The notes under the pieces: model-generated
The model's input: only the letters and a program-made list of their open reading frames with translations
Databases searched by the model: none
What the model was told of the DNA's origin: nothing
Position numbers and translations under genes: made by a program
Shown here: piece after piece, positions 2,654-27,861 of the stretch
Position numbering within the stretch: the stretch's first letter is position 1
Layout: every line of letters starts with the position of its first letter
Source of the DNA: an uncultured Coriobacteriaceae bacterium
Lineage (GTDB): Bacteria > Actinomycetota > Coriobacteriia > Coriobacteriales > Atopobiaceae
Reading direction: 5' to 3'
Assembly: GCA_902788705.1 (NCBI GenBank)
Contig: CADALE010000009.1
Location: 1,428-65,427 of the forward strand
DNA: 64,000 nt

Positions 2654-2772
2654 CGAACTTACCTCCAACGGTAGGGGCTTTGGACCCATGGGTTTCGCGA
2701 TCCGCGGCGCGCGGTCGCGCAACTATATAGCATAGCGCAGGCAGACCGTGGCGTGGGCTGGGATTGCGGGGC

Positions 2773-2778
2773 TATAAT
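2773..2778 (+). promoter_or_regulatory. Candidate -10 box (TATAAT) for the acyltransferase/phosphonate operon
   Basis: A perfect TATAAT lies 37 nt upstream of the ATG at 2815, in the tyrS-divergent intergenic region. No convincing -35 element. Confidence 0.4.
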
Positions 2779-2814
2779 GGCCGGGTACCACGCACCACTC
2801 GCAAGGAGAACCCC

Positions 2815-3870: not shown

Positions 3871-4027
3871 GGCTACGCAGTGGCGGAACGTGTTGTCGTG
3901 GCGAACGTGCTCCGAGCACTTTCGCCATTTCAGCCCCCAGAATGGCGGTTTTGCTGGGAGCACATCCGCCACGGCGGACAGCGGTATCATAGAAAAGTTA
4001 GCCCATCGGCCAAAAAAGGAGCCGTAC

Positions 4028-5332: not shown

Positions 5333-5389
5333 GTACCAGGCAAGCCTGGGCGAAAACCCCGCGCCGCCAAGTATGGAAAGGACCGAACG

Positions 5390-6517: not shown

Positions 6518-8382
6518 TGAAGGTCATCATCTTCAACTCTGGCCTGGGAAGCAGGCTTGGCTCGCTTACCGCCAACCGCCCCAAGTGCCTCGTGCAGCTT
6601 GCGAGCGGCGAGACCATCCTGCACCGTCAGCTGCGCGTGCTTACAAGCTGCGGCCTGCGCGACTTCGTCATTACCACCGGCCCCTTTGCCCAGCTGGTGG
6701 AGGCCGAGGCGCGCGCCTTCGAGGCATGCGGCTGCACCTTCGCGTTTGTGCGCAACGAGCGCTATCAGGAGACCAACTACCTGCACTCGCTTTGGCTTGC
6801 GCGCGACGAGCTGCGCGGCCATGACGTGCTGATGCTTCACGGCGACCTCGTGTTTGACGCTTCCTACGTGCAGGGCTTGCTGGACTCGCCCGAGCCGTGT
6901 CTGGGGTCGGTAAACCCGGCCCTGCCGCTGCCCGACAAGGACTTCAAGGCGCGCGTCGTGGACGACGAGGTGCGCGAGGTAGGCGTGGGCATCTTTGGCG
7001 ACGACTGCCTGACGTTCCAGGCCCTCTACAAGCTGTCTGCCGAGGCGGTGGGCATCTGGCTGGACGAGATTGGGCGCTTCGAGGAGCGCGGCGAGACGGG
7101 CGTGTATGCCGAGAACGCCGCCAACGTGGTGTTTGGCCAGATGCACGTGCGCACCCACTCCTATGAGGGACACTACGTGGAGGAGGTGGACACGCCGGAG
7201 GACCTCGCGCGCGTGTCGGCCGGCATCCGCGCGATGGACTTCGCAAGCCAGCCCGTGTTTGAGGTTTGCGACGAGGGGCTTGAGCTGGTGGAGGGACGCA
7301 CCTATGGCGCGCTGGCCACTGCCCACAGCCTCGCTGACCTGGTGTCCGCCCTTGGCATGCGGCGGCCCCTCGTGGTGGTGGACGGGTACTTTGCCGAGCG
7401 GCTTGACGCGATTTGCGATGGCTCGCTGGTGGGCAGTCCCACGTTTGCGGGCTACGCGCCCAACCCCACCTACGAGCAGATCCTTGACGGCATCGCGGCG
7501 TTCCGCGCGGCCGGGTGCGACGGCGTGGTAAGCGTGGGCGGCGGCAGCTCCATCGACGTGGCCACGTGCATCCGCCTGTGGGCTCCCCTGCCGGGCGACG
7601 GCCGTGACCCGCGCTTTGCCGAGCTGGACCAGCAGCCCATGACGACGGTCCCCCATCTGGCCATCCCCACCACCGCGGGCACGGGCTCGGAGTCAACCCA
7701 CTTCGCGGTGATGTACCTTGACGGACGCAAGCTCTCCATCGCGCAGGAGAGCGCGCTGCCCAGCGTTGCCGTGCTCGACTCGCGCCTGCTTGCGGGACTT
7801 CCCGCCTACCAGCGCGCCTCCACCTTCCTGGACGCGCTTTGCCAGGCCGTCGAGTCGCACTGGTCGGCACGCTCGTGCGACGCGAGCCGCAGCTACTCGT
7901 CGCGCGCCATCCCGGCGCTCATGGGCAACGCCCGTGAGTATCTGGCAGGTGACGCCGACGCCGCGCATGCCGTCATGCGTGCGGCCAACCTGGCGGGCAA
8001 GGCCATCAACGTTACCACCACCACGGCACCGCACGCCCTGAGCTACAAGCTGAGCTCGCTCTACCACATCCCGCACGGCCATGCCGTGGCGCTGACGATG
8101 GCAGCGTGCTGGAAGCTGTTGCTTGAGCAGGGCGACGAGGCCACGCAGGAGCGCCTCACCGAGATTGCGCAGCTCATGACCGCCCGCGCCGATGCCCAGG
8201 CACACGATGGCCTGGAGGCGTTCGAGGAGCTGCTTGCCTCGCTTGACCTGCCAACGACGCCGCATCCCACCGAGGAGGAGCTGGAGCAGCTGGTGACCAG
8301 CGTGAACGTGCAGAGGCTGGCCAACTTCCCGCTTACGCTCTCGCCTGAGACGATACGGAGCATCTACCAGCAGCTTGCCTAG
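6514..8382 (+). CDS. Bifunctional fusion: LicC/PntC-like nucleotidyltransferase (N-terminal) plus iron-containing alcohol dehydrogenase (C-terminal, candidate phosphonoacetaldehyde reductase)
   Basis: N-terminal MKVIIFNSGLGSRLGSLTANRPKCLV carries the G-x-G-S-R-L nucleotidyltransferase motif. The C-terminal half has Fe-ADH motifs GGGSSIDVATC and PHGHAVAL. ATGA overlap with the ppd stop, and AGGGAGG RBS. Confidence 0.85.
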   Translation: MMKVIIFNSGLGSRLGSLTANRPKCLVQLASGETILHRQLRVLTSCGLRDFVITTGPFAQLVEAEARAFEACGCTFAFVRNERYQETNYLHSLWLARDELRGHDVLMLHGDLVFDASYVQGLLDSPEPCLGSVNPALPLPDKDFKARVVDDEVREVGVGIFGDDCLTFQALYKLSAEAVGIWLDEIGRFEERGETGVYAENAANVVFGQMHVRTHSYEGHYVEEVDTPEDLARVSAGIRAMDFASQPVFEVCDEGLELVEGRTYGALATAHSLADLVSALGMRRPLVVVDGYFAERLDAICDGSLVGSPTFAGYAPNPTYEQILDGIAAFRAAGCDGVVSVGGGSSIDVATCIRLWAPLPGDGRDPRFAELDQQPMTTVPHLAIPTTAGTGSESTHFAVMYLDGRKLSIAQESALPSVAVLDSRLLAGLPAYQRASTFLDALCQAVESHWSARSCDASRSYSSRAIPALMGNAREYLAGDADAAHAVMRAANLAGKAINVTTTTAPHALSYKLSSLYHIPHGHAVALTMAACWKLLLEQGDEATQERLTEIAQLMTARADAQAHDGLEAFEELLASLDLPTTPHPTEEELEQLVTSVNVQRLANFPLTLSPETIRSIYQQLA

Positions 8383-8464: not shown

Positions 8465-10489
8465 CTAATGCTGCTTGGGCTCGGCAGCCTCGTTCTGCAC
8501 GGGGATGGGTGCCGGCTGGGCAGGCTCGTGGCTGAGCGCGATGTCCTCGCGCAGCATCTCAACCTCCTTGCTCAGCATGCCGATGCCCATCGTAAGGGAG
8601 TGCAGCTCATCGGCAAAGTGGTAGGCCGCCTCGAGCGGGATGGTGATGTTCACCACCGCCTGCGAGCCCTCGGCCGGCAGGTTCTGCAGGGCGATCGAGA
8701 GTGCCTTCGTGAGGTCGTCAGGCGCGTCGTCAGATGCGGCTTGGTCGTCTCCCTCAGACTCGTCACCTGCGGATTCGTCCTCATGGGACTCATCCTCCTG
8801 GGACTCGTCTTCCTTAGGTTCGTCGTCGCCGTCGCCTGCCGATTCGTCTCCGTCGTCCTCGGGCTGCTCCTCGCCACCCTCGGTCTGCTCATCACCCTCG
8901 GTCTGCTCATCGCCCGCAGCATCAGCGGAATCACCGTTTTCGCCCTGCGCGCCATCTTCGGCGTCAGACGAATCTCCGTCCTCGGGCTGCTCGTCGCCAC
9001 CCACAGGGGTATCCTCGCCCTCTTCGGCGTCCGCCTCCGATGCAGGGGGCACCTCCGCTGGCTCAACCTCATCGGCCGCCGCCTCCTGCGGCGTCTCCTC
9101 GACCTCGGGGATATGCAGGTTCATCGTGGAGCCTGCCTGCGACTCTGCGGCCTCCGACTCCTCGTCATCCTCGGGCACCCATGCGATATGGCGTGGCGCG
9201 ACCTCGCCATCCTCCCCATGAGCCGGAGGTGGCGTGACCGGCGAGGGCTGGCCTGTCAGCTGGGCATGCTTGGCCACCAGATAGTCAACCGTAAGCTTGG
9301 CGGCGCGGCCCGGGCATGCCCAAGCCTCCTCGCGCGCACGCGCACGACCGGCCGCAAGGCCCTCGTCGGCAATGACGGCCTCGATCACCTGGCGCATGCG
9401 CGGGAACTGGTCCTCGGACAGGGGCACGCCAAAGGTGGGGTAGGTCTCGAAGCGCCACTGCGGCTTGTCGTACCAAGCAGCGTCGTACAGCGAGCTGTCA
9501 TAGTTGGCAGGCGTGTAGATGACGGGACGGTCAAACACGAGCGCGTAGTCGAAGATGACGCCGGAGAAGTCGGTGATCATGACGTCTGCCTCGGCCAGGC
9601 ACTCGAAGTTGTCGTTGTCGAAGTTCCACGAGACACGCTGCCCGTCGGGGTACTTTTTCATGAGGCGCTCAAGCACCTCGGAATCGGAGGTGCGTGACTG
9701 CGGGTGCGGGCGAATCGTGAGGGCGAAGCCTGCATCAAGGATGGCATCAATCAGGCGCTCGCCATACACGGAGAGGATGGCATTGGGACCCCACGAGGGG
9801 GCAAGCAACACCGAGATGCCGCTGTGATAGCGCCGGTCGCCTTCGCGCGCAAGGCGCGCGGACATGGCGTCGAGGTAGGTGGAGCCCACCGTGACCAGCT
9901 CCTTGTGCGGCAGGTTACGCACATCCTCGATGGTGCGAATCTCGTCCACCTGGTACTCGCCGGCCAGCAGCACCGAGTCGTAGTAGTCCATGCCAAACAT
10001 GCGATAGCCCAGCGCCGTGCCCACCGTGTGGAAGGTATGCACGTACCAGTCCACGTCCTTGGAGCGCTTCCACTGGTACACGTCGAGGCCGGGCGTCGTG
10101 GCCAGGCACACCGTGGCGCTCATCAGGTTAAGCCGCGCGAAGGCCTTGTTCTCCTCGCCGATGAACTCGGCCTTGACGTGGCGGTACGGCTCGTTGAGCG
10201 CCGGGTCATCGGGCGAGGCCGTCCAGTAGGCCACGTCGATGCCACGGCTCTCGAACTCGTCGCAGATGGGCTTGAACACGTTCCAGTACTGCTTGCCGTC
10301 GGTGAAGATGACATAGGGCAGCTTGTTGGTGGGCACCGACCCCTTGGCCGTGCCGCCACTCGCGGCAAACTTCATCTTGATGGCCAGCTGCCTCAGCGAG
10401 AAGTAGGCCGTGGACACCACGCCGATGAACAGCGTGAACAGCATGCTGCCCGTACCGGGGTCGATATAGCGAGAGAGCTGCGTGAACAT
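8465..10489 (-). CDS. CDP-glycerol glycerophosphotransferase family (TagB/TagF-like) with an N-terminal TM helix and a ~180-aa polyacidic C-terminal extension plus a terminal helical module
   Basis: Core resembles TagF: LLAPSWGPN, IRPHPQS, VMITDFSGVIFDYALVFDRPVIY. The tail runs ...EDDEESEAAES...GDEQTEGDEQTEGGEEQPEDDGDESAGDGDDEPKEDESQEDESHEDESAGDESEGDD. GGAGG RBS before the ATG at 10489. Confidence 0.85.
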   Translation of the reverse strand: MFTQLSRYIDPGTGSMLFTLFIGVVSTAYFSLRQLAIKMKFAASGGTAKGSVPTNKLPYVIFTDGKQYWNVFKPICDEFESRGIDVAYWTASPDDPALNEPYRHVKAEFIGEENKAFARLNLMSATVCLATTPGLDVYQWKRSKDVDWYVHTFHTVGTALGYRMFGMDYYDSVLLAGEYQVDEIRTIEDVRNLPHKELVTVGSTYLDAMSARLAREGDRRYHSGISVLLAPSWGPNAILSVYGERLIDAILDAGFALTIRPHPQSRTSDSEVLERLMKKYPDGQRVSWNFDNDNFECLAEADVMITDFSGVIFDYALVFDRPVIYTPANYDSSLYDAAWYDKPQWRFETYPTFGVPLSEDQFPRMRQVIEAVIADEGLAAGRARAREEAWACPGRAAKLTVDYLVAKHAQLTGQPSPVTPPPAHGEDGEVAPRHIAWVPEDDEESEAAESQAGSTMNLHIPEVEETPQEAAADEVEPAEVPPASEADAEEGEDTPVGGDEQPEDGDSSDAEDGAQGENGDSADAAGDEQTEGDEQTEGGEEQPEDDGDESAGDGDDEPKEDESQEDESHEDESAGDESEGDDQAASDDAPDDLTKALSIALQNLPAEGSQAVVNITIPLEAAYHFADELHSLTMGIGMLSKEVEMLREDIALSHEPAQPAPIPVQNEAAEPKQH

Positions 10490-10504: not shown

Positions 10505-13500
10505 CTAGTCCAGCAAGGTCCAGCAGTTGGGGTCAAAGATGTTGTCGTGCACGCTGTACCAGTGACCGCCCTCGTAGTTGAAGGTGGTGCCCGTCTGCTC
10601 GGCGGTGCGCCACTGCTCCGAGGAGTTGACCAGCACGTCTCCGTCATACTTGACCTGGTTGTTTATGGGCTGACCCGTAAACGGGTTGATGGGGTCGTAC
10701 ACGATGTCGCGCAGCGCCAAGGTGGGCGTGTCGGCATTGGTCATGAACTCGTACGAGGTCTCAAAGCCAGTCTGGCCAAAGTCCTTGACCATGAAGATGG
10801 GGTTGACGCTCTCGGCATTGAAGGAGTCGTCCACGCGCATCCAGGGGAACTGCCCCAGCGTATGGCCGTGGTCGGACACGATGATCACACGCGTGTTGTC
10901 CCAGCACCCCTGCTCTCGCAGGTAGTCGAACCACTCGCCCAGCCTCAGGATGGCCGCCATGTTGGACATGTAGTGCCGGTAGTGGAAGTCGTTGTTCATG
11001 TTGATGGTGCGCCCGTCAATCGTGAAGACGCTCGTGTCGAGGTACTGGGTGTTGTCGATGTAGAGCGACGGCACGTAGTCGGGCATCTGCAGCAGCTCGG
11101 GCGTATGTGTGGTCTGGTTGTCGATGAAGACGAAGTGGTCCTGCGCACCATCTTGCACCGACGTGATGGTGGGCATGGCCGCAAGTACGCTGTACCAGCT
11201 CAGGAACTCGTTGTTGATGGAACGGCGTCCCACGTATCCCGTGAGGAGCTGCTCCTGGAAGGCGGCATCGGCCTGGGCCTGCGCGGCCTCTGCGGCTGCA
11301 GCGGCCGCGGCAGCCTCCTCCTCGGTCATCTCCACAGGTACCTCGGGCTCGGCCTCAGGTGCCACGTATTCGGTCACGAAGAGGCTGGTCACGCTCACGC
11401 CCGCCATCCGCTGGGAAAGCAGCGTGATGCCTCGCGACTCTGCAGTGGCAACCGCAGTCGGCGCAATGACGGGCTGCTGGCGCTCCACCTCGATGGCGTC
11501 AGGGGCGGCGAGGTAGCTTCCGCCGTCGTAGATGGCCTGCTGGGCAAAGGTGGGCACCGTGCGGAAGATGGCGTACCAGCACAGGTTGCGCTTGAAGCGC
11601 TGGGCATTCTCGGCCAGTGCCTGGTCGAGGTCGAAGTCGGCGCCCTCGCCACTCTGCTTCGCGGCCAGCACGGTTGAGTACCAGCGCGTATAGGCTCCTG
11701 CGGTGTGGTAGACGCTCACGTTGGGAATGCCGTCAAAGAGCGAGTAGTCGTCCGTGTAGTAGTTGTAGCCCACAAGGGCCGGGTCGAACATGGTCACGTC
11801 AAAGCCTGCCTGCGAGAACAGCGTGGGCAGCACGCGCAGCGCCTCGCCCTGCTTGTCCACCAGATACTCCTCGAAGCGCTCGTCGGAGATGTACGGCACG
11901 TACTCGTAGCCGCCATACAGGCCCGGCGACCCAAACACCGTCTTCAGGCCGAACGACAGGGTGTTGGGATAGTAGGTGAAGCCATCGTACATCGAGGCTA
12001 TCTCGGGCTTCTCCTTCATGAGATAGGGCAGGTAGCCGCTGATGCCGCGGTCAAGGAAGACGATCACCACGTTGCGACCGTCGCGCGAGAGGTTGACGAT
12101 GGGCTGGGGGTTTCCCTCCTCGTCGAAGGGCACCTCCGTCGTTGCCTGATGCCAGAAACCGGCATCCTCCTGGGAGGTCTCCTCGGTGGGCTGCTCGTCA
12201 GATGCGTAGTCGCCTTCGCCCTCGAGCACCCAGTCAGGCGCACCCTCCTCCTGTGACGAGCCCCCGTCGAGTGTTGGCTCCACCACCACGGCAGGCTCAT
12301 CCTCGTTCTGGGCAGCCTGGTCCTGGGCCACGTCATCCTGCCCGGACGCGTCGGAGCCCTTCTGGGACCCAACCTGCACGGTTGAGGAGGCCGCATCCGT
12401 GAGCGTGACCACGGCACGCACGTTGGGCACCGCAAGGAACACGAGGCCCGCGCACATGATGGCCAGAAGCGGGTTCACCAGCTGCTGGCCACGCTTCCAC
12501 AGCACCGAGAACACGACGCACACGGCAGCAACCACGCCCAGGTTGAGCATGATGGAGGCAAGGTCGAAGACCGGACGGTACTCGTACACGAGGTCAGCGC
12601 CCAGGATGCCAAAGCCCTGGCCAAAGAAGAAGTAGCCCACCAGCGAGACCACGGCCAAAAGCGACAGGCCGAAGGAGATGGTGCGCCTGCCCGCCTCGTC
12701 GGACAGGTAGAGGTAGGTGCCCACCCACAGCACGAACAGGCCAAAGAACACGCAGCCCGTATGCAGCACGAACTGCAGCTGGTCGTCGTAGCCGTTGGCA
12801 CTCACGAACTCCTTGGGCGACGAGCCGATGAGCGCTGAGGGCACCAGCACGCCAAGCAGCACGAACAGCAGCAGCGCCGCCAGCAGGAACGTGACCACTG
12901 GGGTGGTGCCTCCGTCGGGATGCAGGCTGTGCCGAGGCTTCCATCCGAACAGCGACGCAAGGATGGGCCAGTCCACCAGCACGAAGCCAAGGGTGACCAG
13001 CAGGCCACCGCCAAAGGTGGTGATGGCGTCCGAGCCGATGAGGTAACCCCATGCCCACACCAGCGCCACCTGCACCAAGATGCCAAACACGAGCTGCGGC
13101 CGCTTGAGCACCTTGAGGAACAGGTTCTTGACCAGCGAGAACACCTGATTGCACGTCCAGTAGAACACGAGGCCCGAGGGGCTTTGGTACAGCAGCACCA
13201 AAAAGACCAGGGCCAGGCCATAGGCCTGCAGCTTGTCGCGCAGCGGCAGGTCGCGCGTGTACACAAAGGTGGACACGCAGTTGAACAGCGTCATCAGCAG
13301 CGGCATCAGGTTGAGCGTGAGGCCGCCGAGCTTGATGAGCTGGTCAGGGGCGCCAAGGTCGTTGAGGAACAGAAACGACGCGCCCTGAAGCGCCGTCGCG
13401 CTGGAGAGGTAGCTGTATGCCGCCATGAACACGGGAATCTGAAGCAGCAGCGATACCGACCCGTTGAGCGCATAGATGGGCTTGTAGCCCTGCTGACGGT

Positions 13501-13780
13501 AGTAGGTGGACAGCATCATGTACTGCTCGTCACCCTTGAACGACCGCTTGATCTGCGCCACGCGGTCGGCCATCTTGGCCTGGCGGGCACGCTCCTCGTC
13601 CTGCATGCGGTCAGCCATGCGATAGAGGGGCAGGCACAGGAAGTTGACCACCAGGCTCACGCCAACCAGGGCAAGACCGGGATCCTGCAGCAGGCGGCAG
13701 AAGAGGGAGAACGCGAGGTCCACGATGTAGACCAGCGGCATAACCACGATGTCGTAGAGCATTGAGAGCAGAGTGGCCAT
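10505..13780 (-). CDS. Fusion protein: YidC/Oxa1-like membrane domain + additional TM segments + acidic linker + extracytoplasmic alkaline-phosphatase-superfamily (LtaS/sulfatase-like) domain (paralog 1)
   Basis: N-terminal MATLLSMLYDIVVMPLVYIV...LPLYRMADRMQ...QYMMLSTYYRQQGYKPIYALNGSVSLLLQIPVFMAAY...SGLVFYWTCNQVFSL aligns by eye with the YidC core. The C-terminal part has VVIVFLDRGISGY and RVIIVSDHGHTLGQF (AP-superfamily metal-site motifs). I chose the ATG at 13780; the track ORF starts at 13861. Confidence 0.8.
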   Translation of the reverse strand: MATLLSMLYDIVVMPLVYIVDLAFSLFCRLLQDPGLALVGVSLVVNFLCLPLYRMADRMQDEERARQAKMADRVAQIKRSFKGDEQYMMLSTYYRQQGYKPIYALNGSVSLLLQIPVFMAAYSYLSSATALQGASFLFLNDLGAPDQLIKLGGLTLNLMPLLMTLFNCVSTFVYTRDLPLRDKLQAYGLALVFLVLLYQSPSGLVFYWTCNQVFSLVKNLFLKVLKRPQLVFGILVQVALVWAWGYLIGSDAITTFGGGLLVTLGFVLVDWPILASLFGWKPRHSLHPDGGTTPVVTFLLAALLLFVLLGVLVPSALIGSSPKEFVSANGYDDQLQFVLHTGCVFFGLFVLWVGTYLYLSDEAGRRTISFGLSLLAVVSLVGYFFFGQGFGILGADLVYEYRPVFDLASIMLNLGVVAAVCVVFSVLWKRGQQLVNPLLAIMCAGLVFLAVPNVRAVVTLTDAASSTVQVGSQKGSDASGQDDVAQDQAAQNEDEPAVVVEPTLDGGSSQEEGAPDWVLEGEGDYASDEQPTEETSQEDAGFWHQATTEVPFDEEGNPQPIVNLSRDGRNVVIVFLDRGISGYLPYLMKEKPEIASMYDGFTYYPNTLSFGLKTVFGSPGLYGGYEYVPYISDERFEEYLVDKQGEALRVLPTLFSQAGFDVTMFDPALVGYNYYTDDYSLFDGIPNVSVYHTAGAYTRWYSTVLAAKQSGEGADFDLDQALAENAQRFKRNLCWYAIFRTVPTFAQQAIYDGGSYLAAPDAIEVERQQPVIAPTAVATAESRGITLLSQRMAGVSVTSLFVTEYVAPEAEPEVPVEMTEEEAAAAAAAAEAAQAQADAAFQEQLLTGYVGRRSINNEFLSWYSVLAAMPTITSVQDGAQDHFVFIDNQTTHTPELLQMPDYVPSLYIDNTQYLDTSVFTIDGRTINMNNDFHYRHYMSNMAAILRLGEWFDYLREQGCWDNTRVIIVSDHGHTLGQFPWMRVDDSFNAESVNPIFMVKDFGQTGFETSYEFMTNADTPTLALRDIVYDPINPFTGQPINNQVKYDGDVLVNSSEQWRTAEQTGTTFNYEGGHWYSVHDNIFDPNCWTLLD

Positions 13781-13932
13781 GAAACCCCACCTACGCGACG
13801 GATATTGACACAAGCTAGCAGGATAGCAGGTACGTAAGCACCGCGCGGCACAGGTGGCCACATGTGAGGAAAAAAGACACGTTTTGCCACGTAGCGCTGG
13901 CCATTTGGGCCGATTCGGACGTACCGGCAGCC

Positions 13933-16611
13933 CTAGTCGAGGCGCTGCCAGTTGGACTCCTCGAAGATGTCATCGTGCACGGAGTAGACATGCGCGTCGT
14001 AGGTGTCGAAGGTGGTGCCCAGCTGGTAGGCGGAGGTATCCCAGAACAGCGACGTGTTGGTCTGCTGGGGGCGCGCCCACTTGGCATCGGAGGTCATCGC
14101 GTTTCCCGTGAAGGGGTTGACCGGGTTGTCCATGATGCCCGAAAGCGCCAGCAGCGGCGCGTCGGCGTTGGTCATGAACTCGCGCGAGGTGGAGAGCGCA
14201 CCCGTTGCGCCGAAGTCCTTCACCATGAGCAGCGCCGAGACACCCTCGACGTCCAGCTCGTCATCGTCAAATACGAGCTGGGGGAACTGCCCGAACTGGG
14301 CGCCATGGTCGGACACCACGATGATGCGCGTGTTGTCGTAGACGCCCTGCTCGCGCATCCAGTCGAACCACTCCCCCAGACGCAGCAGCGCAGCCATGTT
14401 GGTGTAGTAGTGCGTAGTGCCATCTGGCCCCAGGTTGATGGTGAGACCGTCCACCGTCATGCCGTCAACGCCCTCGAACGCCGAGTTGTCCACGTACAGG
14501 CTGGGCACACAGTCGGGCATCTGCACGTCGTCAGGGTTATGCGTGCAGAGGTTCTCCATGATAAGGAAGTTGTCGGAGGAGTCGTCGGACACCTGCGTGA
14601 GCGGGGTGAGGTTGGCGAGCACCGCGTAGTAGTCGATGAATCCCGAGCTCACCGAATGGTTGACGGCCGTGGAGAGGTAGGCACCGTCGTCGTAGAGGGC
14701 ACCGCGCAGCCCGGCAGGCATGCACTTGAAGAGGCTGTACAGGCACAGGTTGCGGGGAAACACCTGCTTGATGACCGTCTGATACTGCTCGGACACGAAC
14801 GCGTTGTACGCGCCAGCGGTGTGATAGACGTCAAGGTAGGGCGTGTCGTCAAAGATAGCGTAGCCCGCCTCGCCCCACTGGTAGTCGCATAGCGGCGGGT
14901 CGAAGAGCGTGGCGGTGAAACCAGCCTGGTAGAAGAGCGTGGGCAGCACCTTGAGCGCCTCGTTGTGCTTGTCCCTGAGCAGCATGTCGGAGCGCTCGTT
15001 CATCTCCTGGAACATGTACTCGTAGCCCCCGTAGATGGCAGGGGACCCAAACACGGTGAAGCGCCCGGAGGCAAGCGTGTTGGGATAGTAGGTAAACCCA
15101 TCGAAGGCGGCGGCCACATCGTGGCGCTGCTGCATGATGAAGGGCACGTACTCGCTGATGGCACGGTCAAGGAACAGCACCACCACGTTGCGCCCCTGGG
15201 TAGACAGGGTGACGAGCGGCACGATGGAGCCCTCGTCGTCCACCAGCTGATGAACGGTGCCGTAGGGCTGGGCCACGACGGCTGGCGCATCCTCAGCCAC
15301 CTGGGCCTCGGCCACCGCAGCGACATCGGGAAGCATGGAGGCCTTGACCTCCTCGGTGGCAGCGTAGATGCCGCGCACGTTAACCGTGCAGAGGCCCAAG
15401 ATGGCAATCAGCAGCACCGACAGCACGGGAGCGAGCAGCCGCGGCCGCAGTCGCCCCACGGCCAGGATGGCCGCGACCACGACGACGAGCGCCACGATGT
15501 TGGAGGCTACCTCCGATGCCTCGTACACGGGGGCTGTCTCAAAAGAGAGGCTGGAGGTGATGATGCCCAGGTCATGCCCGGGCAGGAAGAAGTCGCAGAG
15601 GAAGATGCCAAGCAGCACACAGAGCGCCAAGGCAAGCGCGCGGCGGCCATGTGCACCCGCAAGCGCGTAGTACACGCCCAGCCAGAGGACGAAGAGGCCG
15701 ACGAACACGCTGAGGGTGTGCACGAGGTGCCAGAGGGGGTTGACGAAGTCGTTTACGTTGATGAACTCGGTAGGTGCGCTCGCGATGAGCGCAGACGGAA
15801 TGAGCAGGCCCGTTACGAGGGCGATCGAGCAGGCGGCCAGGAGGAAGGCAGGACCGGGGATGGCCGGGGCCTCCTTGTCCGCAGCCGACGCATGGCGGAG
15901 CTCGACCGCGGCCGCCAAGGCGGGCGGCAGCGTGAGGCCCTCGCGCGGCACGAGGTTGCGTAGCAGCGAGAACACCTGGTTGCACGTCCAATACAGCACA
16001 AGCCCCGAGGGACTGCGATACAGCAGCACCAAGAACACGAGGGCCAGGCCATAGGGCTGCAGCTTCTCCTTGAGGCTCATGCCCCGCGTGTACACCGCGG
16101 TCGAGACCGCATTGAGGGCCGTCATGATCAGTGGCAGCACGTTGACGGTGGTGGTGCCCAGCGCAAGGAACGCGTCAGGCTCGCCCAGGTTGGGGATGCC
16201 CAGAAACGACGCGTGATGCAGCAGCTCCAGGTTGGAGAGGTAGGCATAGGCCGCCATGAAGAAGGGGATCTGCAGCAGCAGCGATACCGAGCTGCGCAGC
16301 GCATAGATCGGCCGGTACCCCTGCTGGCGGTAGTAGGTCGAGAGCATCATGTACTGCTCGTCGCCGCTGAAGCTGGACTTGATGTGGCTTACCCAGCGCG
16401 CAAGCGACGCCTGGCGCTCGCGCTCCTCGCGCTGCAGCCGGTCGGCCATGGCATAGAGCGGGGTGCTGAGCACGCTGACCACCAGGCTTACGCACACGAT
16501 GGCCAGACCGGGGTTTGCCACCAGGCGGTTTGCCAGCGAGAACGTGAGCTCGATAACATACACGAGGGGCGTGATCACGAGGTCATACGCAATGCCAGGC
16601 AACCGTCCCAT
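13933..16611 (-). CDS. Fusion protein: YidC/Oxa1-like domain + polytopic region + alkaline-phosphatase-superfamily domain (paralog 2)
   Basis: MGRLPGIAYDLVITPLVYVIE...TPLYAMADRLQ...QYMMLSTYYRQQGYRPIYALRSSVSLLLQIPFFMAAY...; C-terminal VVVLFLDRAISEY and RIIVVSDHGAQFGQF. The architecture is collinear with the neighbouring gene. The ATG at 16611 lies 8 nt after the upstream stop. The track N-terminal extension is R/P-rich and overlaps the upstream gene. Confidence 0.8.
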   Translation of the reverse strand: MGRLPGIAYDLVITPLVYVIELTFSLANRLVANPGLAIVCVSLVVSVLSTPLYAMADRLQREERERQASLARWVSHIKSSFSGDEQYMMLSTYYRQQGYRPIYALRSSVSLLLQIPFFMAAYAYLSNLELLHHASFLGIPNLGEPDAFLALGTTTVNVLPLIMTALNAVSTAVYTRGMSLKEKLQPYGLALVFLVLLYRSPSGLVLYWTCNQVFSLLRNLVPREGLTLPPALAAAVELRHASAADKEAPAIPGPAFLLAACSIALVTGLLIPSALIASAPTEFINVNDFVNPLWHLVHTLSVFVGLFVLWLGVYYALAGAHGRRALALALCVLLGIFLCDFFLPGHDLGIITSSLSFETAPVYEASEVASNIVALVVVVAAILAVGRLRPRLLAPVLSVLLIAILGLCTVNVRGIYAATEEVKASMLPDVAAVAEAQVAEDAPAVVAQPYGTVHQLVDDEGSIVPLVTLSTQGRNVVVLFLDRAISEYVPFIMQQRHDVAAAFDGFTYYPNTLASGRFTVFGSPAIYGGYEYMFQEMNERSDMLLRDKHNEALKVLPTLFYQAGFTATLFDPPLCDYQWGEAGYAIFDDTPYLDVYHTAGAYNAFVSEQYQTVIKQVFPRNLCLYSLFKCMPAGLRGALYDDGAYLSTAVNHSVSSGFIDYYAVLANLTPLTQVSDDSSDNFLIMENLCTHNPDDVQMPDCVPSLYVDNSAFEGVDGMTVDGLTINLGPDGTTHYYTNMAALLRLGEWFDWMREQGVYDNTRIIVVSDHGAQFGQFPQLVFDDDELDVEGVSALLMVKDFGATGALSTSREFMTNADAPLLALSGIMDNPVNPFTGNAMTSDAKWARPQQTNTSLFWDTSAYQLGTTFDTYDAHVYSVHDDIFEESNWQRLD

Positions 16612-16619
16612 GCACGAAC

Positions 16620-19600
16620 CTACTTCTTGCCCTGCAGCAGGCGTCCGATGCTCTTCAGCACCTCGCGGCGAGCTGTGCCGTACGGAGCGATGGGGTCGAT
16701 GATCCGGCGCAGCGGGCTGTCCTCGCTCACGGCCTTCTCGTGCAGGGGCATCACGAGTCCCTGCGGCGCCGCGCCGCCCACGCTCTTGGCCGTGCTCTCG
16801 GCCAGGCGACCCAGCAGCATCTCGTAGAAGGGCATGCGCCGCGCGTAGCTCCAGTACACGTCGGCGTAGTCGCAGTCGGGGTTTACCCACGGCTTCTCCC
16901 AGCCGGCATAGTGGATGACCTTCGGCGCCCGTCGCGCGGCCTGGTAGGCGTCGAACACGTCGTTCGGCGCAAAGGTGAACACGTTGGCCACGCGCCCGCC
17001 GCAGTCGTGCATCACGTTCCACTCGTTGGGCAGGCGCACCACGCGGCCCTGGCACTCGGCGTTGAGGATGTCCTGGTCGTCATAGATGTAGTCCACGCTG
17101 GACACGATGCCCATCCACTCGGCCACCGTGTGCAGGCGGCGCATCTCGGCGGTGTTCAGAACCAGCACGCCCGCCTGGAAGTAGGCGTACGGGTCGGCCA
17201 GGTGCAGCACGTCACGCGCATAGGCAAGGCGTTGCCCGTCGTTGTTGTTGAGGTTGCCCAAGAAGTCGATGTCGATGGCCGCAGCAAGCAGGTTGTTACC
17301 CAGCTCGGTGTCGAAGAGCTGCGCCACGTCGCCCTGGATGATGAGGTCGGAGTCGAGGTACAGCACCTTGTCGTAGCAGCCCAGCACCTCCTGGATGAGG
17401 AAGCGGTAGTACGTCTCCATGCTGATGTGCTCGTTGTTGGTGGAGAGGTCGTAGCCCTTGATAAGGCGCCACACGTTGTGGAAGCGCAGCGACACGTTGG
17501 GATGGTCTGCCAAGAGGTCCAGCATGGCCTGGCGGTGCCGCATCGAGATGTTCTTCTCGAAGACCACGATGTCGTAGAAGCGGTCCTTGGAGGCGTTCTC
17601 CACCATCGAGAGGATGGTGGTGGTAAGCATGGGCACGTAGGCGTCATCGGAGGCAAACACCACCGGCACGATCTTGTCGGCGTCAAGGCCGTGGCGCACC
17701 TGGGTGACGGGCAGCAGCTCGTAGGCCACATCGGGGTTCTGGAAGTGCACGCACTGAAGCTGCTTGGTCTTCCAACCCCACTCGCAGCGCGTCGCGTGCA
17801 GGTAGTAGATGTTGAAGAGCCGCTCGGTAAGGTGGCCAGGCGTGCGCAGGGCCTCCTTGCTGTAGTGGCTCATGTCGGTGGTGGCGCAGAACTCCTCCAG
17901 CACCGGGAACACCCAGGCCGCATAGGCGTCGAACAGCTCCTTGCGCATGAGGTACATGTTGCAGAAGCACGAGATGGGCCCGTCAAGGAAGCCGTCCACG
18001 TCATCGGCGTAGTCGGGATAGAGCCGCTTGACGATGTCGGCCATGCGCTCGAGGTCGGCGATGTGCAGGTAGGGTGCCTGCACGTAATGCTCGCGGGGCG
18101 TGGCAAAGCCGCCCGGGAAGCTGGCCAGCTCGTGGAAGCCGGTGGTGATGACGTCGTAGCCCTCCACGCAACGACGGATGGTGTCGTCATCCAGGCCATA
18201 GCGCTGGCAGGCGTCGGCGTCGATGAAGTCGTCCATCACCTCGCCGTACTCGTTCTCATCGTAGAACGTGTCGCTGAAGTTGAAGTAGCGGCGGTAGTGG
18301 CAGAAGCCCACGTAGTCGCAGCTCACGTTCTTCCACGCCCAATACTGGGTGGTCATCTCGCAGTACATCGGGTTGCGCTCGGAGAGGTTGTCGCCCTCGT
18401 CGTCGTGGAACGCCGTGGCAAAGCGGTCATTCTTGTTGCCCGGACCCACCTGCACCAGCTGCAGGATGGAGCTGTCGGGCACGTCTACCCGCTTGTGCGT
18501 GGTCACGAAGATGCGGATGTCCTGGGCCTCGGCGCTGGCACGGAAGGCCATGACGCGCTCCAGGTGCGCCAGGTGCGCCAGGTGCCCCTCGGCCGTGGTG
18601 CGCATGCGGCGGTAGCGGCGAGCCTCAGCCGACTGGTCGTCGTCGGCCACCTCGATCGAGCGGGCGATGTCGGCCAAGCGGAACAGCTGGTCGTCGGCCT
18701 TAGGCAGCGTGCCTCCAGCTATGAAGCCGTATGCGTGGTCACGCACGAAGCGCCACAGCTCGCGCGCCGCGACGGAGGCGCCCCACACCTCCACGAAGCG
18801 GCTGGCCGCCTCGGGCTTTTGCTGGTCGGGAACGCGCACCAGCCAGTCGTTGGCCAGCAGCTCCAGCATCTTGTGGGTCATGCCCAGCAGGCAGGTCTGC
18901 CGTACTTCGCTGGGATGCGCCTCCACGAAGGCGGCGGTGGCGTCGCGGCAGGCCATGAACTGCTCGCAGAAGCGGCCGAAGGTGTCGGCCGTGATGGTGG
19001 AGGTGCCCGTCACACCGCCGCCGTAGTGGTACACCAGGCCACGGCACGACTCGAAGGGAACCTCGTCGGCCGCAAGCGCGCTGACCACGAAGCACTCATA
19101 GCTGTCCTCCGCACGCTCGAGGCGCTGGTCAACCATGGCGGCAAACGCACGCTTGAGCAGGCGGGTACGGTAAAGGCGCTGCGTGGCGCGCCAGTCAAGC
19201 AGCTGCCCCTGCGACTTGTCGTAGATGGCGCGCAGGATGTCATCGCCCTCAAGGACCTTCGAGGGGCGGTTCACGTACGCCTCGAACGAGGCGCGCGCCT
19301 CCTCAGGAAGCCCACCCTCCGACACCACCGTGATGCCAAAGTGCACGATGTCGGCAGGCTTGCGGGCAACGAGGTCGTCCAGCTGCTCCAGCATGTCGGG
19401 GGCCAGCTCGTCGTCTCCGTCAAGGAACAGGGCGTAGTCGCCGGTGGCGGCGCGCACGCCCGTGAGGCGCGCAAGGTGCAGGCCCTGGTTTGCCTCGTGC
19501 TGGATGACCACGAAGCGAGGGTCGTCGCCCACGGAGGCCTTGATGCGCTGGGGCGTGTCGTCAGTGCTGCAGTCGTCCACGACGACGGCCTCGAAGTCAG

Positions 19601-19688
19601 CGAGCGTCTGGGCCTTGAGACTGTCAAGGCAGCGGTCGATGGACTCGCCCAGGTTGTATGCGGCTATGATCAGCGTGATGCGAGGCAT
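16620..19688 (-). CDS. Three-module glycosyltransferase: GT2 (N-terminal) - DUF4422-like - GT8 (C-terminal)
   Basis: N-terminal ITLIIAAYNLGESIDRCLDSLKAQTLADFEAVVVDDCSTDDT...LDGDDE (GT2). Middle IRIFVTTHKR...NPMYCEMTTQYWAWKN...DYVGFCHYRRYF (DUF4422 signature). C-terminal PVVFASDDAYVPM...LYLDSDLII...LPNEWN (GT8 DxD and LPxxWN). Confidence 0.85.
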   Translation of the reverse strand: MPRITLIIAAYNLGESIDRCLDSLKAQTLADFEAVVVDDCSTDDTPQRIKASVGDDPRFVVIQHEANQGLHLARLTGVRAATGDYALFLDGDDELAPDMLEQLDDLVARKPADIVHFGITVVSEGGLPEEARASFEAYVNRPSKVLEGDDILRAIYDKSQGQLLDWRATQRLYRTRLLKRAFAAMVDQRLERAEDSYECFVVSALAADEVPFESCRGLVYHYGGGVTGTSTITADTFGRFCEQFMACRDATAAFVEAHPSEVRQTCLLGMTHKMLELLANDWLVRVPDQQKPEAASRFVEVWGASVAARELWRFVRDHAYGFIAGGTLPKADDQLFRLADIARSIEVADDDQSAEARRYRRMRTTAEGHLAHLAHLERVMAFRASAEAQDIRIFVTTHKRVDVPDSSILQLVQVGPGNKNDRFATAFHDDEGDNLSERNPMYCEMTTQYWAWKNVSCDYVGFCHYRRYFNFSDTFYDENEYGEVMDDFIDADACQRYGLDDDTIRRCVEGYDVITTGFHELASFPGGFATPREHYVQAPYLHIADLERMADIVKRLYPDYADDVDGFLDGPISCFCNMYLMRKELFDAYAAWVFPVLEEFCATTDMSHYSKEALRTPGHLTERLFNIYYLHATRCEWGWKTKQLQCVHFQNPDVAYELLPVTQVRHGLDADKIVPVVFASDDAYVPMLTTTILSMVENASKDRFYDIVVFEKNISMRHRQAMLDLLADHPNVSLRFHNVWRLIKGYDLSTNNEHISMETYYRFLIQEVLGCYDKVLYLDSDLIIQGDVAQLFDTELGNNLLAAAIDIDFLGNLNNNDGQRLAYARDVLHLADPYAYFQAGVLVLNTAEMRRLHTVAEWMGIVSSVDYIYDDQDILNAECQGRVVRLPNEWNVMHDCGGRVANVFTFAPNDVFDAYQAARRAPKVIHYAGWEKPWVNPDCDYADVYWSYARRMPFYEMLLGRLAESTAKSVGGAAPQGLVMPLHEKAVSEDSPLRRIIDPIAPYGTARREVLKSIGRLLQGKK

Positions 19689-19715
19689 GGTGCTCCTCTT
19701 GTCCGTCGTTGTACC

Positions 19716-21152
19716 CTATGCGCGGCGTGTCCGCCGCAGGAGGTCGCGCGCGTGGCGCGGCAGGGCGGTCAGCGCCCTTCCGATACGAAATGATACCGAA
19801 CCAACGACGTCATCGAGCTGCTCCTTCAAATCCGCAGCAAGACGGCGCTGGGACGTCAGCTCGTCATGCAGGGCGTCACGCTCCCGCCGCGCCTCCTCCA
19901 CCATGCGGTCGGCCTCGCGCAGCATCGAGGAGACGAGGTATCCCGCCCGGTCCTCGCCCGCGCCAAGCCCGTCGCCGGAAACGGTGGCAAACACCTCGAG
20001 CCACAGCCCCTCGAAGTCGAAGTTGGCCAGCTCCCGAGCGTGAGCGCGAGCCTCCGCGCCAAGACGCTGGCGGAGGTGGTCGTCGGAAAGCAGTGACGAG
20101 ACCTGTCGCGCCAGCCCACCAACGTCACCCACGGGCGCGCAGAGCACCCCGCGGTATCCCTCCAGCAGCGTGAGATAGCCCAGGTCGTAGCAGGCGCACG
20201 GCAGGCCGCAGGCCTTTGCCTCGGCCACCGTCACGGGATAGCCCTCGAAGTGCGACGTGAGCAGCAGCACGCTTCCCTCGCGCATCACCGCGGGCAGCTC
20301 GTCGTGAGGCACCCCTCCTCGGAAGGAGACCGCCTCGAGCACGCCCCTGTCGCGTGCCTGTCCCTCGAACCACGCGCGGTCGTAGTCGCCGAAGGGCCCC
20401 ACAAACTCCAAGGTAGCATCAGGCACGTGATGCCGCACCTCGCGCAGGACGTCAAGGGCCTCGACCGGACTCTTGTCCGAGGCGATGCGTCCCACACACA
20501 AGATCCTGTGCCCGTCAAGAGGCGCGGGGCCGCTTGCAAGGAAGGCCTCGTCAGCCGCGTTCACGGTACGGAAGGCATGCGGGTTGAAGCTTGACCAAAA
20601 CTCCTGGTCATCGCGGCTTAGGCACATCACGGCGTCAACGTGCCGGTAGATGGAGGGGATGCGCAGCGCACGCGGGTCTCCCCAGCCGGTCAGTGCGCGG
20701 TGCGAGCCATGGCAGAACGCCACGAACGGCACGCCCAGCGACTTACACACCAGCAGGTCCCAGGCAATGGTTGAGCTGAGCCAAGCCCCATACACCAGGC
20801 AGTCGGGGGCGAATTCCTCCAACACCGAGGCAAGCGCGGCGCCACGTGTGGCATAGCGCTCTCGGTCGGACACGAAGGCGTCGGGCACGGTGGCCAGGGA
20901 CGCCCCCGCAGGAAGCGCGACGTTAGCCGTTCGTCCCTCATCGCAGATCACCAGCACCTCAAGCCCCATGGAGCGCCAAAGCGCGGCGAGGTCAAGCGTC
21001 ACGCGCTCGGCACCTCCCGTGCCCAGCGTGTGGTAGTACACGGCAACCCGCCTGACGGGCCGCCTCGAGGAGGGCTGGCCCAAGCCCGTGGACAAAAGGT
21101 CAAGCACCTCGACGTCGTCATCCCAGCACGACGCCGCCAAGGCCCCCACCAT
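19716..21152 (-). CDS. Glycosyltransferase family 4 (GT-B, group 1) with a C-terminal coiled-coil tail; 5' end uncertain
   Basis: VAVYYHTLGTGGAERV, GRIASDKSP, LLTSHFEGYPVTVAEAKACGLP (the E-x7-E region). The tail is rich in R/E/L heptads. The upstream part of the track ORF (to 21284) is W/R/P-rich and non-coding-like, so I prefer the ATG at 21152 (see the frameshift finding). Confidence 0.75.
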   Translation of the reverse strand: MVGALAASCWDDDVEVLDLLSTGLGQPSSRRPVRRVAVYYHTLGTGGAERVTLDLAALWRSMGLEVLVICDEGRTANVALPAGASLATVPDAFVSDRERYATRGAALASVLEEFAPDCLVYGAWLSSTIAWDLLVCKSLGVPFVAFCHGSHRALTGWGDPRALRIPSIYRHVDAVMCLSRDDQEFWSSFNPHAFRTVNAADEAFLASGPAPLDGHRILCVGRIASDKSPVEALDVLREVRHHVPDATLEFVGPFGDYDRAWFEGQARDRGVLEAVSFRGGVPHDELPAVMREGSVLLLTSHFEGYPVTVAEAKACGLPCACYDLGYLTLLEGYRGVLCAPVGDVGGLARQVSSLLSDDHLRQRLGAEARAHARELANFDFEGLWLEVFATVSGDGLGAGEDRAGYLVSSMLREADRMVEEARRERDALHDELTSQRRLAADLKEQLDDVVGSVSFRIGRALTALPRHARDLLRRTRRA

Positions 21153-21306
21153 ATCTACGAACGGCCTCCCCCAAAGGCAGGCCATCGATAGTCCTGCCCA
21201 GGTCGGACGCCACCACCGTCCCATGTGAGGCGGCGATGGCCTGCGCCAGCTTGGCAACCTTGGCCACGACGTCGCCCTGCGCACCCATCGACTGGCTCTC
21301 GCCCAA
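21118..21306 (-). other. RBS-led 62-codon ORF in a different frame, overlapping the GT4 5' end. Possibly the displaced N-terminus of the GT4 gene (frameshift), or a small upstream ORF.
   Basis: TTG at 21306 is preceded by AAGGAG at 6-nt spacing. The first ~35 codons have coding-like GC3 (GGC GAG AGC CAG TCG ATG GGT GCG CAG GGC GAC GTC GTG GCC AAG...). A C5/G5 run at 21168-21172 sits where the coding signal switches frame. Confidence 0.35.
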
Positions 21307-21371
21307 GGTTCACTCCTTCATGTTATGCCGCCCGCCCAAGGCCTCCCGGCAATCGCCCAGGCCTCGGCAGG

Positions 21372-22478: not shown

Positions 22479-22559
22479 AGGGCCCCATCCTCTCGTAGGG
22501 CAACGGCGTCGGGCGGCGCAGACAAGCCTCGCGCCACTGGGCGACGCCTCGCCCGGCTA

Positions 22560-24458: not shown

Positions 24459-24460
24459 GG

Positions 24461-27808: not shown

Positions 27809-27855
27809 GATACATACCTCCCGATCAACGATTGAGCAGGTTGGGAGAGATGTCC

Positions 27856-27861
27856 ATTCTA
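27856..27861 (-). promoter_or_regulatory. Candidate -10 box (TAGAAT on the minus strand) for the GH25-CWB2 gene
   Basis: Minus-strand GATAGAATGG lies ~45 nt upstream of the GTG start. The -35 element is weak. Confidence 0.3.

Follow-up and report, generated by a model that had tools for sequence, protein, structure and literature searches.

The window analysed here is the whole of a 64-kb stretch of DNA (64,000 nucleotides; GC content about 65%) from an uncultured Coriobacteriaceae bacterium (contig CADALE010000009.1 of assembly GCA_902788705.1). Its minus strand carries two adjacent paralogous genes, called here geneA and geneB, each of which joins a YidC/Oxa1-like membrane core to a second membrane module and to a predicted extracytoplasmic domain of the alkaline phosphatase (AP) superfamily. 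Next to them lies a gene for a TagF-like enzyme, called here the partner. Open reading frame (ORF) calling placed both fusion genes at the coordinates expected, on the minus strand. The features of this gene group, with lengths in amino acids (aa) and transmembrane helices as TM, are as follows.

13933..16611, minus strand: geneA, 892 aa, N-terminus MGRLPGIAYDL; YidC-like core, five-helix membrane module and AP-superfamily domain.

15943..16512, minus strand: YidC/Oxa1-like core of geneA, aa 34-223; TM1, cytoplasmic hairpin and TM2-5.

15367..15855, minus strand: second membrane module of geneA, aa 253-415, five helices, from the AlphaFold model and hydropathy.

13936..15213, minus strand: predicted extracytoplasmic AP-superfamily domain of geneA, aa 467-892, from the fold match and the invariant residues.

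10505..13780, minus strand: geneB, 1091 aa, N-terminus MATLLSML; paralogue of geneA (48% identity) with the same three-part plan.

8465..10489, minus strand: TagF-like (Glyphos_transf) partner, 674 aa, from Pfam PF04464, fold and adjacency statistics.

An earlier note, made from the letters alone, had described two adjacent genes of 1091 and 892 aa sharing one architecture; the ORFs, the Pfam matches and the geneA model agree with this description. The motifs that it quoted occur in both proteins: PLY at aa 51, QYMMLSTYY at 86, LLLQIP at 111, YWTCNQVFS at 207, FLDR at 480 (geneA) and 575 (geneB), TVFGSP at 519 and 614, and SDHG at 767 and 969. GeneB has acidic, Ala-rich low-complexity inserts, and its key residues are N46, D577, T614 and D970-H971.

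The fusion is widespread. A word-indexed search returned 855 homologues at E <= 1e-5 among 8000 candidates scored; the best 120 of these are 842-1171 aa long and all contain PF02096. Only a few of them are named, as "membrane protein insertase YidC", as "YidC/Oxa1 family membrane protein insertase" or as "hypothetical". When the YidC-like part by itself was searched exhaustively with phmmer, it matched 954 clusters (50% identity) at E <= 1e-30, the short matches in this list being contig-end fragments. With each species represented by a single genome, a scan yielded at least 553 fusion loci, and 79 of these were kept as a neighbourhood sample. Cultured carriers of the fusion include Coriobacteriales bacterium OH1046, Ruminococcaceae bacterium YRB3002 and strains of Olsenella and Agathobacter. 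Counted by record title, these 79 loci comprise about 65 from Clostridia (Lachnospiraceae, Oscillospiraceae, Ruminococcaceae, Acutalibacteraceae and others), 10 from Actinobacteria of the Atopobiaceae/Coriobacteriales type and 4 from Treponema, mostly as metagenome-assembled genomes (MAGs) from rumen or gut. The 892- and 1091-aa genes are also called, in the same order, on a 207-kb ENA rumen scaffold and on a Logan contig, and a protein identical to geneA (P0001) was found on independent contigs. Misassembly, which the earlier note had considered, and chance fusion are ruled out by this recurrence of the pair on independent assemblies, together with the at least 553 loci and the 954 clusters. 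Tandem arrays of full-length fusion genes are common, with six in locus L076 (2291-17702), three in L066 (9995-18119) and four in L083 (78-12580), and two here; in L076 and L066 each gene of the array touches the next or shares a few bases with it.

The relationship of the N-terminal region to YidC, previously aligned by eye, is borne out by profile searches. In both proteins, aa ~35-222 are recognized by Pfam 60KD_IMP (PF02096, cutoff 35) across model positions 2-161 of 163, with 74.9 bits (E 9.8e-21) for geneB and 67.2 bits (E 2.2e-18) for geneA. The cutoff of TIGR03592 (84.3 bits) is passed by geneB with 87.1 bits, and geneA lies just under it with 80.0 bits. A profile of 40 family sequences matches structures of E. 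coli YidC at E 1e-12 in an alignment unbroken over profile positions 24-216. Judged by these matches, the YidC homology of the core is well past chance. In the AlphaFold model of geneA, built from the family alignment (mean pLDDT 85.8, pTM 0.77), the core helices lie at 34-80, 83-96, 102-125, 158-174, 180-197 and 202-223, and make up a five-helix core with a cytoplasmic helical hairpin between helices 1 and 2. The five-helix core, the cytoplasmic hairpin and a polar groove are thus shared by the fusion and by YidC/Oxa1/Alb3 proteins such as E. coli YidC and B. halodurans YidC2.

Unlike these proteins, however, the fusion has neither a groove arginine nor a free C-terminal tail, the core being followed by further helices and a 430-aa outside domain; it also occurs in up to six tandem copies, and its conservation within the family is unusually high. 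The positively charged groove residue that marks the first core helix of the YidC family (R366 in E. coli, R72 in B. halodurans) is missing. R366 aligns with position 46, which is Ser46 in geneA and N46 in geneB, and the same column in 89 family members holds N (66), S (15), Q (6), C (1) or T (1), with R or K in 0 of 89. The groove is otherwise polar; Gln114 is aligned to the Gln of the E. coli segment LLIQMPIF, and Asn211 to the Asn of the segment VSNL. Despite the missing arginine, the YidC-like core is the best-conserved region of the fusion: columns conserved in at least 95% of the 89 members number 32 of 123 in its TM2-5, 49 of 426 in the AP domain and 6 of 163 in the five-helix module, and the mean frequency of the top residue is 0.70, 0.56 and 0.44, respectively. 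Tandem paralogues are 0.51-0.96 identical in the YidC-like part, 0.20-0.73 in the five-helix module and 0.40-0.71 in the AP domain. A conserved YidC-like part beside a diverging remainder suggests that the former meets a constant partner or ligand, or keeps a constant function, and that the remaining modules vary in specificity. The role of the YidC-like module is probably other than general insertion.

This bears on an alternative explanation in which the fusion and its partner are independent enzymes. The TagF-like enzyme would decorate a lipid-linked precursor inside the cell, like LicD or TagF, the fusion would be an enzyme of the LtaS/GacH/EptA type using bulk phospholipid, and the YidC-like module would be a built-in insertase or chaperone for its own or nearby membrane proteins. 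Such a helper function would agree with the strength of the YidC match over the full length of the model and with the conservation of the polar groove residues besides the arginine. It is harder to reconcile with the loss of the arginine in every member, and with the length of the AP domain, about 430 residues, since the segments translocated by YidC are typically shorter than 30 residues (PMC8675477). In addition, LtaS, EptA and GacH work without such a module, and one would hardly expect a simple helper to be better conserved than the rest of the protein or to be retained in all six copies of a tandem array. The evidence on gene linkage, given below, bears on the same alternative.

The second membrane module of geneA has helices at 253-278, 293-317, 320-342, 365-388 and 390-~415 in the model, with matching hydropathy peaks. 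Between its YidC core and AP domain, geneB has about seven helices by hydropathy; the previous estimate of about six was too high for geneA. From N to C terminus, the geneA model consists of the YidC core, a disordered cytoplasmic linker, the five helices, a disordered linker and an alpha/beta domain. The short loops between helices 2 and 3 (HGRR) and between helices 4 and 5 (RLRPR) are rich in arginine, which, with the count of five plus five helices, assigns them to the cytoplasm and the C-terminal domain to the outside of the cell.

In a Foldseek search of the PDB with the geneA model, full-length MCR-1 came first (E 2.5e-7, 653 columns) and full-length EptA next (744 columns), followed by LtaP and LtaS mixed with sulfatases and phosphonate monoester hydrolases (E up to 1e-5, probability 1.00). 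The Pfam Sulfatase profile (PF00884, cutoff 25) matches in the DHG region only, and passes for geneB (36.2 bits) and fails for geneA (14.4 bits). The LtaS/sulfatase-like domain proposed earlier is thus confirmed as a fold, whereas the profile recognizes it in geneB only. Compared with PDB sequences, a profile of the AP domain found sulfatases, phosphonate monoester hydrolases and, weakly, YejM, all around DHG, and no LtaS or EptA; the first-strand Asp and the DHG region align with sulfatase and phosphonate monoester hydrolase. The link of the AP domain to transferases comes from the structure match.

The residues D482, T519 and D768-H769 show no variation in 40 sequences, and in 89 members their conservation is 95% or higher. 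In the geneA model, D482 follows the strand 475-481, T519 opens the helix 519-528 and D768-H769 follow the strand 761-766, which is the usual layout of the metal Asp, the Thr nucleophile and the Asp-His pair in the AP superfamily. By motif and secondary structure, D482 and D768-H769 are candidate metal ligands and T519 is the candidate nucleophile, at a site with the family consensus T-[VN]-F-G-x-P in which Thr is invariant. Of the two residues singled out in the earlier note for a structural check, a candidate AP-type nucleophile is present and the groove arginine is absent. Taken together, sequence and model indicate that the C-terminal domain is a real but very divergent member of the AP superfamily.

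A formylglycine sulfatase was rejected, as there is no C/S-x-P-x-R motif and the nucleophile site carries an invariant Thr. More broadly, the AP domain could act outside the cytoplasm as a phosphodiesterase, a phosphonate-ester hydrolase or a sulfatase, and serve to trim or remodel envelope polymers or to scavenge nutrients. This would accord with the nature of its nearest sequence matches near DHG, which are sulfatases and phosphonate monoester hydrolases, and with Foldseek E-values of sulfatases close to those of transferases. The same Thr and missing motif that exclude a formylglycine enzyme speak against such a hydrolase, as do the membrane module placed as in EptA and MCR-1, the rank of these two full-length enzymes as best structural matches, and the tight linkage to a biosynthetic phosphotransferase and donor-synthesis genes described below. 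Of all the explanations weighed here, this is the one that we consider least probable, and very improbable.

The multi-helix membrane module stands immediately before the catalytic domain, as in EptA and MCR-1, the likeness to the helices of these enzymes being one of position. This arrangement implies that the YidC core is an additional N-terminal module. The earlier suggestion that a YidC domain serves as the membrane module of the AP enzyme needs correction: according to the model, the AP domain has a membrane module of its own, and the YidC core is an extra one, not a replacement. The fusion resembles EptA, MCR-1, LtaS, GacH and BcsG in having a membrane module (five helices in geneA) followed by an extracytoplasmic AP domain with a predicted metal site and Thr, and by analogy it probably shares with them the chemistry of transfer through a phospho-Thr. 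It differs from all five in its added, highly conserved YidC-like core, in its very low sequence similarity, with a Pfam Sulfatase match around DHG only, and in its near-obligate pairing with a TagF-like enzyme, often near genes for cytidine-activated donors. This pairing and the nearby donor genes suggest a dedicated donor and not bulk phospholipid.

The gene for the TagF-like partner begins 15 nt downstream of geneB. Its product matches PF04464 with 35.3 bits (cutoff 22.1) in the C-terminal half only and matches no NCBIfam model. The predicted structure has a GT-B fold, for which Foldseek found TagF (3l7k_D, E 8e-11) and Cps3D (8qoy, E 2e-10). The partner retains the stretches APSW, RPHPQ and ITDFSGVIFDY, which correspond to motifs of the TagF family. 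TagF-type enzymes move a phospho-alcohol from a CDP-alcohol (CDP, cytidine diphosphate) to a hydroxyl. Homologues of the partner are 55-75% identical across phyla and better conserved than the fusion. Residues 8-17, YIDPGTGSML, are the same in all 36 partners aligned, which come from Actinobacteria, Clostridia and Treponema; after this stretch come one hydrophobic helix and then basic residues, which by the positive-inside rule places the short tail outside and the catalytic domain in the cytoplasm. Both sequence and model fit a cytoplasmic, membrane-anchored enzyme that uses donors of the CDP-alcohol type. The partner thus shares PF04464 and the GT-B fold with TagF/TagB/TarL and Cps3D, and is set apart from them by the invariant YIDPGTGSML with its membrane helix and by its almost constant position beside a YidC-AP fusion. 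An invariant motif of this kind (window 10460-10489) is unusual for a simple membrane anchor. The partner in the window also has an acidic, low-complexity C-terminal tail of about 245 aa, rich in E, D, G, S and Q (window 8465-9199); most homologues are about 420 aa long and tail-less, and a few of 593-687 aa have a long tail.

A short outside tail followed by a helix and basic residues is the form of a classic "N-tail" substrate of YidC. It is conceivable that the YidC-like groove permanently holds the N-tail and helix of the partner like a trapped substrate, so that a trans-membrane complex sets cytoplasmic synthesis beside extracellular transfer, and that translocation is carried out by something else or is unneeded. 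The resemblance of the partner N-terminus to such a substrate (a short Asp-bearing tail, a helix, basic residues), the invariance of its first ten aligned residues across phyla, the constancy of the YidC-like core between paralogues whose remainder diverges, and the conservation of the partner beyond that of the fusion would all be in keeping with docking. That a single partner gene often serves several fusion paralogues argues in the other direction, and docking by itself leaves the membrane crossing of the activated group unexplained. Moreover, docking is included in the explanation that we prefer, in which the fusion and the partner form one machine, and is thus compatible with it and not opposed to it. 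As a sufficient account, docking alone seems to us distinctly unlikely.

The fusion and the TagF-like gene are closely linked in both directions. A TagF-like gene is present in 54 of the 79 fusion loci, mostly less than 100 bp away, on the same strand and on either side of the fusion. In 54 loci the fusion is flanked by ORFs on both sides; the TagF-like gene directly adjoins it in 32 of these and stands further off in the locus in another 7. Glyphos_transf is the commonest Pfam family of 125 neighbour ORFs (20 ORFs), followed by nucleotidyltransferases (7 and 6), and Wzx, LCP and ABC-2 are absent from the top 25 neighbour families. In the reverse test, which started from the TagF-like protein in 80 metagenome loci, the fusion was adjacent in 65 and elsewhere in the locus in 6; seven further loci had flanks too short to tell, and two, with flanks of at least 600 bp on either side, lacked the fusion, giving a fusion in 71 of 73 informative loci. 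Three more TagF-like homologues, chosen blind to the fusion, all adjoin one, and one Lachnospiraceae MAG has the pair as a bare operon amid unrelated genes. The survey thus departs from the earlier idea that the fusion might track glycopolymer or pepM loci. As main association these genes were rejected, PEP mutase (PEP, phosphoenolpyruvate) being found in 6 of the 79 loci and the glycosyltransferases of the window in 0-8 of them.

Near-obligate adjacency in both directions, bare operons and conservation of the partner across phyla argue for a functional unit. The same three observations count against the independent enzymes described above. In favour of independence, some fusion loci have no TagF-like gene nearby, and the known relatives of the AP module use bulk phospholipids. 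All in all, we regard independent action as unlikely, if still worth keeping in view.

The enzymes that would supply a donor are encoded next to the partner, and those for the probable acceptor lie upstream of geneA.

3890..5332, plus strand: fusion of a cytidylyltransferase-like domain and PEP mutase, of Fom1-like architecture, from Pfam and TIGR02320; the start may be at 4028.

5390..6517, plus strand: phosphonopyruvate decarboxylase (Ppd), from TIGR03297.

6514..8382, plus strand: fusion of a nucleotidyltransferase and an iron-dependent alcohol dehydrogenase (Fe-ADH), from Pfam NTP_transf_3, Fe-ADH and ADH_Fe_C.

16620..25594, minus strand: glycopolymer genes encoding GT2-DUF4422-GT8, GT4, UDP-galactopyranose mutase, GT1 and GT2, from Pfam; upstream of geneA.

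The neighbouring phosphonate pathway is upheld by NCBIfam equivalog cutoffs, which both of its first two enzymes exceed: PEP mutase scores 359.5 bits with TIGR02320 (cutoff 319.55) and phosphonopyruvate decarboxylase 420.1 bits with TIGR03297 (cutoff 312.5). The PEP mutase has EDKTGLKQNS, in agreement with the EDKXXXXXNS criterion (PMC6697681), and its gene is called as 434 aa in independent assemblies. All matches of NCBIfam alcohol-dehydrogenase models to the nucleotidyltransferase/Fe-ADH fusion, that of Phn_Fe-ADH included, stay under the respective cutoffs. From its sequence, this protein is likely to reduce phosphonoacetaldehyde to hydroxyethylphosphonate (HEP) and may possibly activate the product too. 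No aminotransferase was found by Pfam among the genes scanned at 1-40 kb, and the presence of an Fe-ADH in its place leads us to expect HEP and not aminoethylphosphonate. The phosphonate cluster as a whole (3890-8382) contains two nucleotidyltransferase domains, one fused to PEP mutase and the other to Fe-ADH. The cytidylyltransferase domain of Fom1 produces CMP-hydroxyethylphosphonate (CMP, cytidine monophosphate; PMC6697681). Given the Fom1 architecture of the PEP mutase (Ppm) fusion and this chemistry, CMP-HEP is probably, by analogy, the activated donor at this locus.

Elsewhere the donor genes vary. A nucleotidyltransferase lies within 4 kb of the fusion in 24 of 47 well-flanked loci, and Ppm, Ppd and an Fe-alcohol dehydrogenase recur together in six loci from Clostridia. 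In L084 (8261-10075 and 12677-14260), nucleotidyltransferases are fused to an aminotransferase-family domain and to choline kinase. L086 (5599-6936) has a cytidylyltransferase fused to a GFO/IDH/MocA oxidoreductase, with an aminotransferase alongside. L085 (8223-8942), from Treponema, has a plain nucleotidyltransferase and, between the partner and the fusion, an Asp/Glu racemase. The varied fusion partners of these nucleotidyltransferases hint at a wide range of transferred head groups. Neighbour ORFs of L005-L083 include two proteins with choline-binding repeats (PF19127), and several loci have a choline/ethanolamine kinase, which fits phosphocholine as one decoration. Judged by gene content, the TagF-like enzyme and the fusion are the constant core of these loci, and the activated group is their variable part.

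The window can also be compared with phosphonyl-tailoring (Pnt) clusters (PMC6697681), which it resembles in having a CTP_transf_like-Ppm fusion and Ppd. The downstream machinery of those clusters consists of LicD-like phosphotransferases or glycosyltransferases, and their later steps were called "enigmatic" (PMC6697681); the candidate downstream machinery here is different, namely the TagF-like enzyme and the YidC-AP fusion. Phosphonate production or gene expression has been reported in Olsenella, Atopobium and Treponema (Rice et al. 2019, PMC6697681), which are relatives of fusion-bearing taxa.

The observations set out above on architecture, residue conservation, distribution and gene linkage lead us to infer a series of chemical steps, a lipid intermediate and a role for the YidC-like module. 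With a little less than even confidence, we propose that the fusion and the TagF-like enzyme form one machine, by which extracytoplasmic polymers receive phospho-alcohol or phosphonate groups. Locus-specific cytoplasmic enzymes would produce a cytidine-activated donor, in this case HEP activated as CMP-HEP, and at other loci CDP-choline or CDP-ethanolamine, CDP-glycerol or amino-alcohol phosphates. The TagF-like enzyme, anchored at the inner face of the membrane, would put the phospho-alcohol or phosphono-alcohol on the hydroxyl of a membrane lipid. The arginine-less polar groove of the YidC-like core might then carry the head group to the outer leaflet, dock the anchor of the partner, or do both. 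Finally, the membrane and AP modules would take the group on Thr519 (geneA) or Thr614 (geneB) and pass it to an extracytoplasmic acceptor, which here would probably be the galactofuranose-containing polymer of the upstream glycosyltransferases (16620-25594). Tandem paralogues may serve different acceptors or head groups.

Precedents exist for single steps. Membrane-anchored enzymes of the AP superfamily pass phospholipid head groups to diverse acceptors (10.64898/2026.09.23.753746). Purified E. coli YidC scrambles phospholipids in vitro, as Oxa1-family proteins do in simulations (PMC11047089). A lipid-donor role of the groove would fit since the arginine is lost in 89 of 89 members, the core is the most conserved region, the partner is predicted to be cytoplasmic and membrane-anchored and to use donors of the CDP-alcohol type, and E. 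coli YidC scrambles phospholipids in vitro. The speculation in the earlier note that the groove handles a lipid-linked donor fits these data as well. Still more tentatively, and with clear doubt, we suggest that the YidC/Oxa1 fold has been turned here from an insertase into a dedicated translocation groove and docking site for a lipid-linked phospho-alcohol or phosphonate donor, in a widespread and hitherto unrecognized three-step pathway of outside decoration, formed with a TagF-like loader and a fused EptA/LtaS-like transferase, which would include the phosphonyl-transfer step of some phosphonoglycan clusters.

In its logic, the proposed machine resembles the pathways of GtrB/CsbB with GtrA/GtcA and GtrC/YfhO, and of YpfP, LtaA and LtaS: a cytoplasmic loader, a flipping module in the membrane and an outward-facing enzyme. 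It would differ from these pathways in moving a phospho-alcohol or phosphonate and not a sugar, in having a TagF-like loader and not a GT2 enzyme, and in a presumed flippase that is of YidC fold and fused to the final transferase. The parallel with YpfP, LtaA and LtaS, in which a GT-B enzyme, a translocating module and an LtaS-like domain follow one another, could be taken further, in that the TagF-like enzyme would make a phospho-alcohol lipid anchor, the YidC-like module would flip this anchor like LtaA, and the AP domain would extend it with ordinary phospholipid like LtaS. LtaP and LtaS are indeed among the top Foldseek matches. Dedicated and varied donor pathways (phosphonate, choline kinase, amino-alcohol) would however be a costly way to provide a single primer residue, choline-type groups are not extendable, and up to six paralogues per locus suit varied acceptors better than one polymerase. 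We find such a scheme, akin to the making of lipoteichoic acid, quite improbable.

Several points weigh against the one-machine proposal. The two-way linkage would arise equally from enzymes acting independently on the same polymer. Fifteen of the 54 loci with ORFs on both sides have no TagF-like gene within 10 kb of the fusion, and none was seen in the fetched region of L076, the locus with six tandem fusions. With the queries used, about 38% of well-flanked loci have no nucleotidyltransferase. Neither the sequence searches nor the fold searches tell transferase and hydrolase apart. Known enzymes of the LtaS and EptA types draw on bulk phospholipids and therefore work without a dedicated flippase. 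E. coli YidC tolerates the loss of R366, so that the missing arginine by itself cannot exclude insertase activity.

No description of the YidC-AP fusion or of its two-gene module was found in the literature searched. The phosphonate literature consulted (including PMC6697681) does not mention YidC, and mentions sulfatases for Selenomonas only. All component families are known, and the module is thus not categorically new. What would surprise is that a YidC fold was recruited, that it has systematically lost its hallmark arginine and that it is paired near-obligately with a TagF-like enzyme bearing an invariant anchor. If our proposal is correct, the universal YidC/Oxa1 fold would here serve, in nature, a purpose other than general protein insertion, and the lipid scrambling by insertases seen in vitro would gain a possible physiological setting. 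The module is compact and testable, is represented by about 1000 protein clusters, and occurs in rumen and gut Clostridia, Atopobiaceae and Treponema, where the current names, "membrane protein insertase YidC" or hypothetical, are probably misleading. Its proteins are candidates for the enzymes that link phosphonates to surface polymers, and probably also phosphocholine, phosphoglycerol and phosphates of amino alcohols. Envelope decorations of such a kind shape charge, recognition by phages and antibodies, and the binding of surface proteins in gut bacteria.

One more membrane protein is encoded near the phosphonate genes.

2764..3870, plus strand: membrane acyltransferase of the Acyl_transf_3 family, from Pfam and hydropathy.

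A hydropathy scan of all genes at 1-33 kb found this protein and the two fusions as the only polytopic proteins, just as the earlier note had stated for the locus. The absence of Wzx/Wzy, TagGH and LCP, also observed there, extends to the Pfam-scanned main ORFs of the 64-kb window, and a polymer flippase could be encoded elsewhere in the genome. The glycopolymer gene closest to geneA (16620-19688), 8 nt upstream of it, encodes a single protein of 1022 aa composed of GT2, DUF4422 and GT8. Beyond the glycopolymer genes lie GH25 muramidases at 25748-27928, with three CWB2 wall-binding repeats, and at 28123-28947. The CWB2 repeats of Clostridioides difficile bind PSII, an anionic polymer of the wall (PMC4973711). 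By analogy, the polymer of the glycopolymer locus could be a ligand of the CWB2-bearing muramidase.

Three coding-biased ORFs of the window, at 46386-48485 (699 aa), 32154-33263 (369 aa) and 45910-46389 (159 aa), have no Pfam match. A pilus cluster of the Tad/Flp type occupies 50064-55039 and comprises two T2SSF proteins, a T2SSE ATPase, a ParA/CpaE-like ATPase and a SAF-domain protein. The other genes of the window include tyrS, argR and those for a class A penicillin-binding protein, central metabolism and a P-type ATPase.

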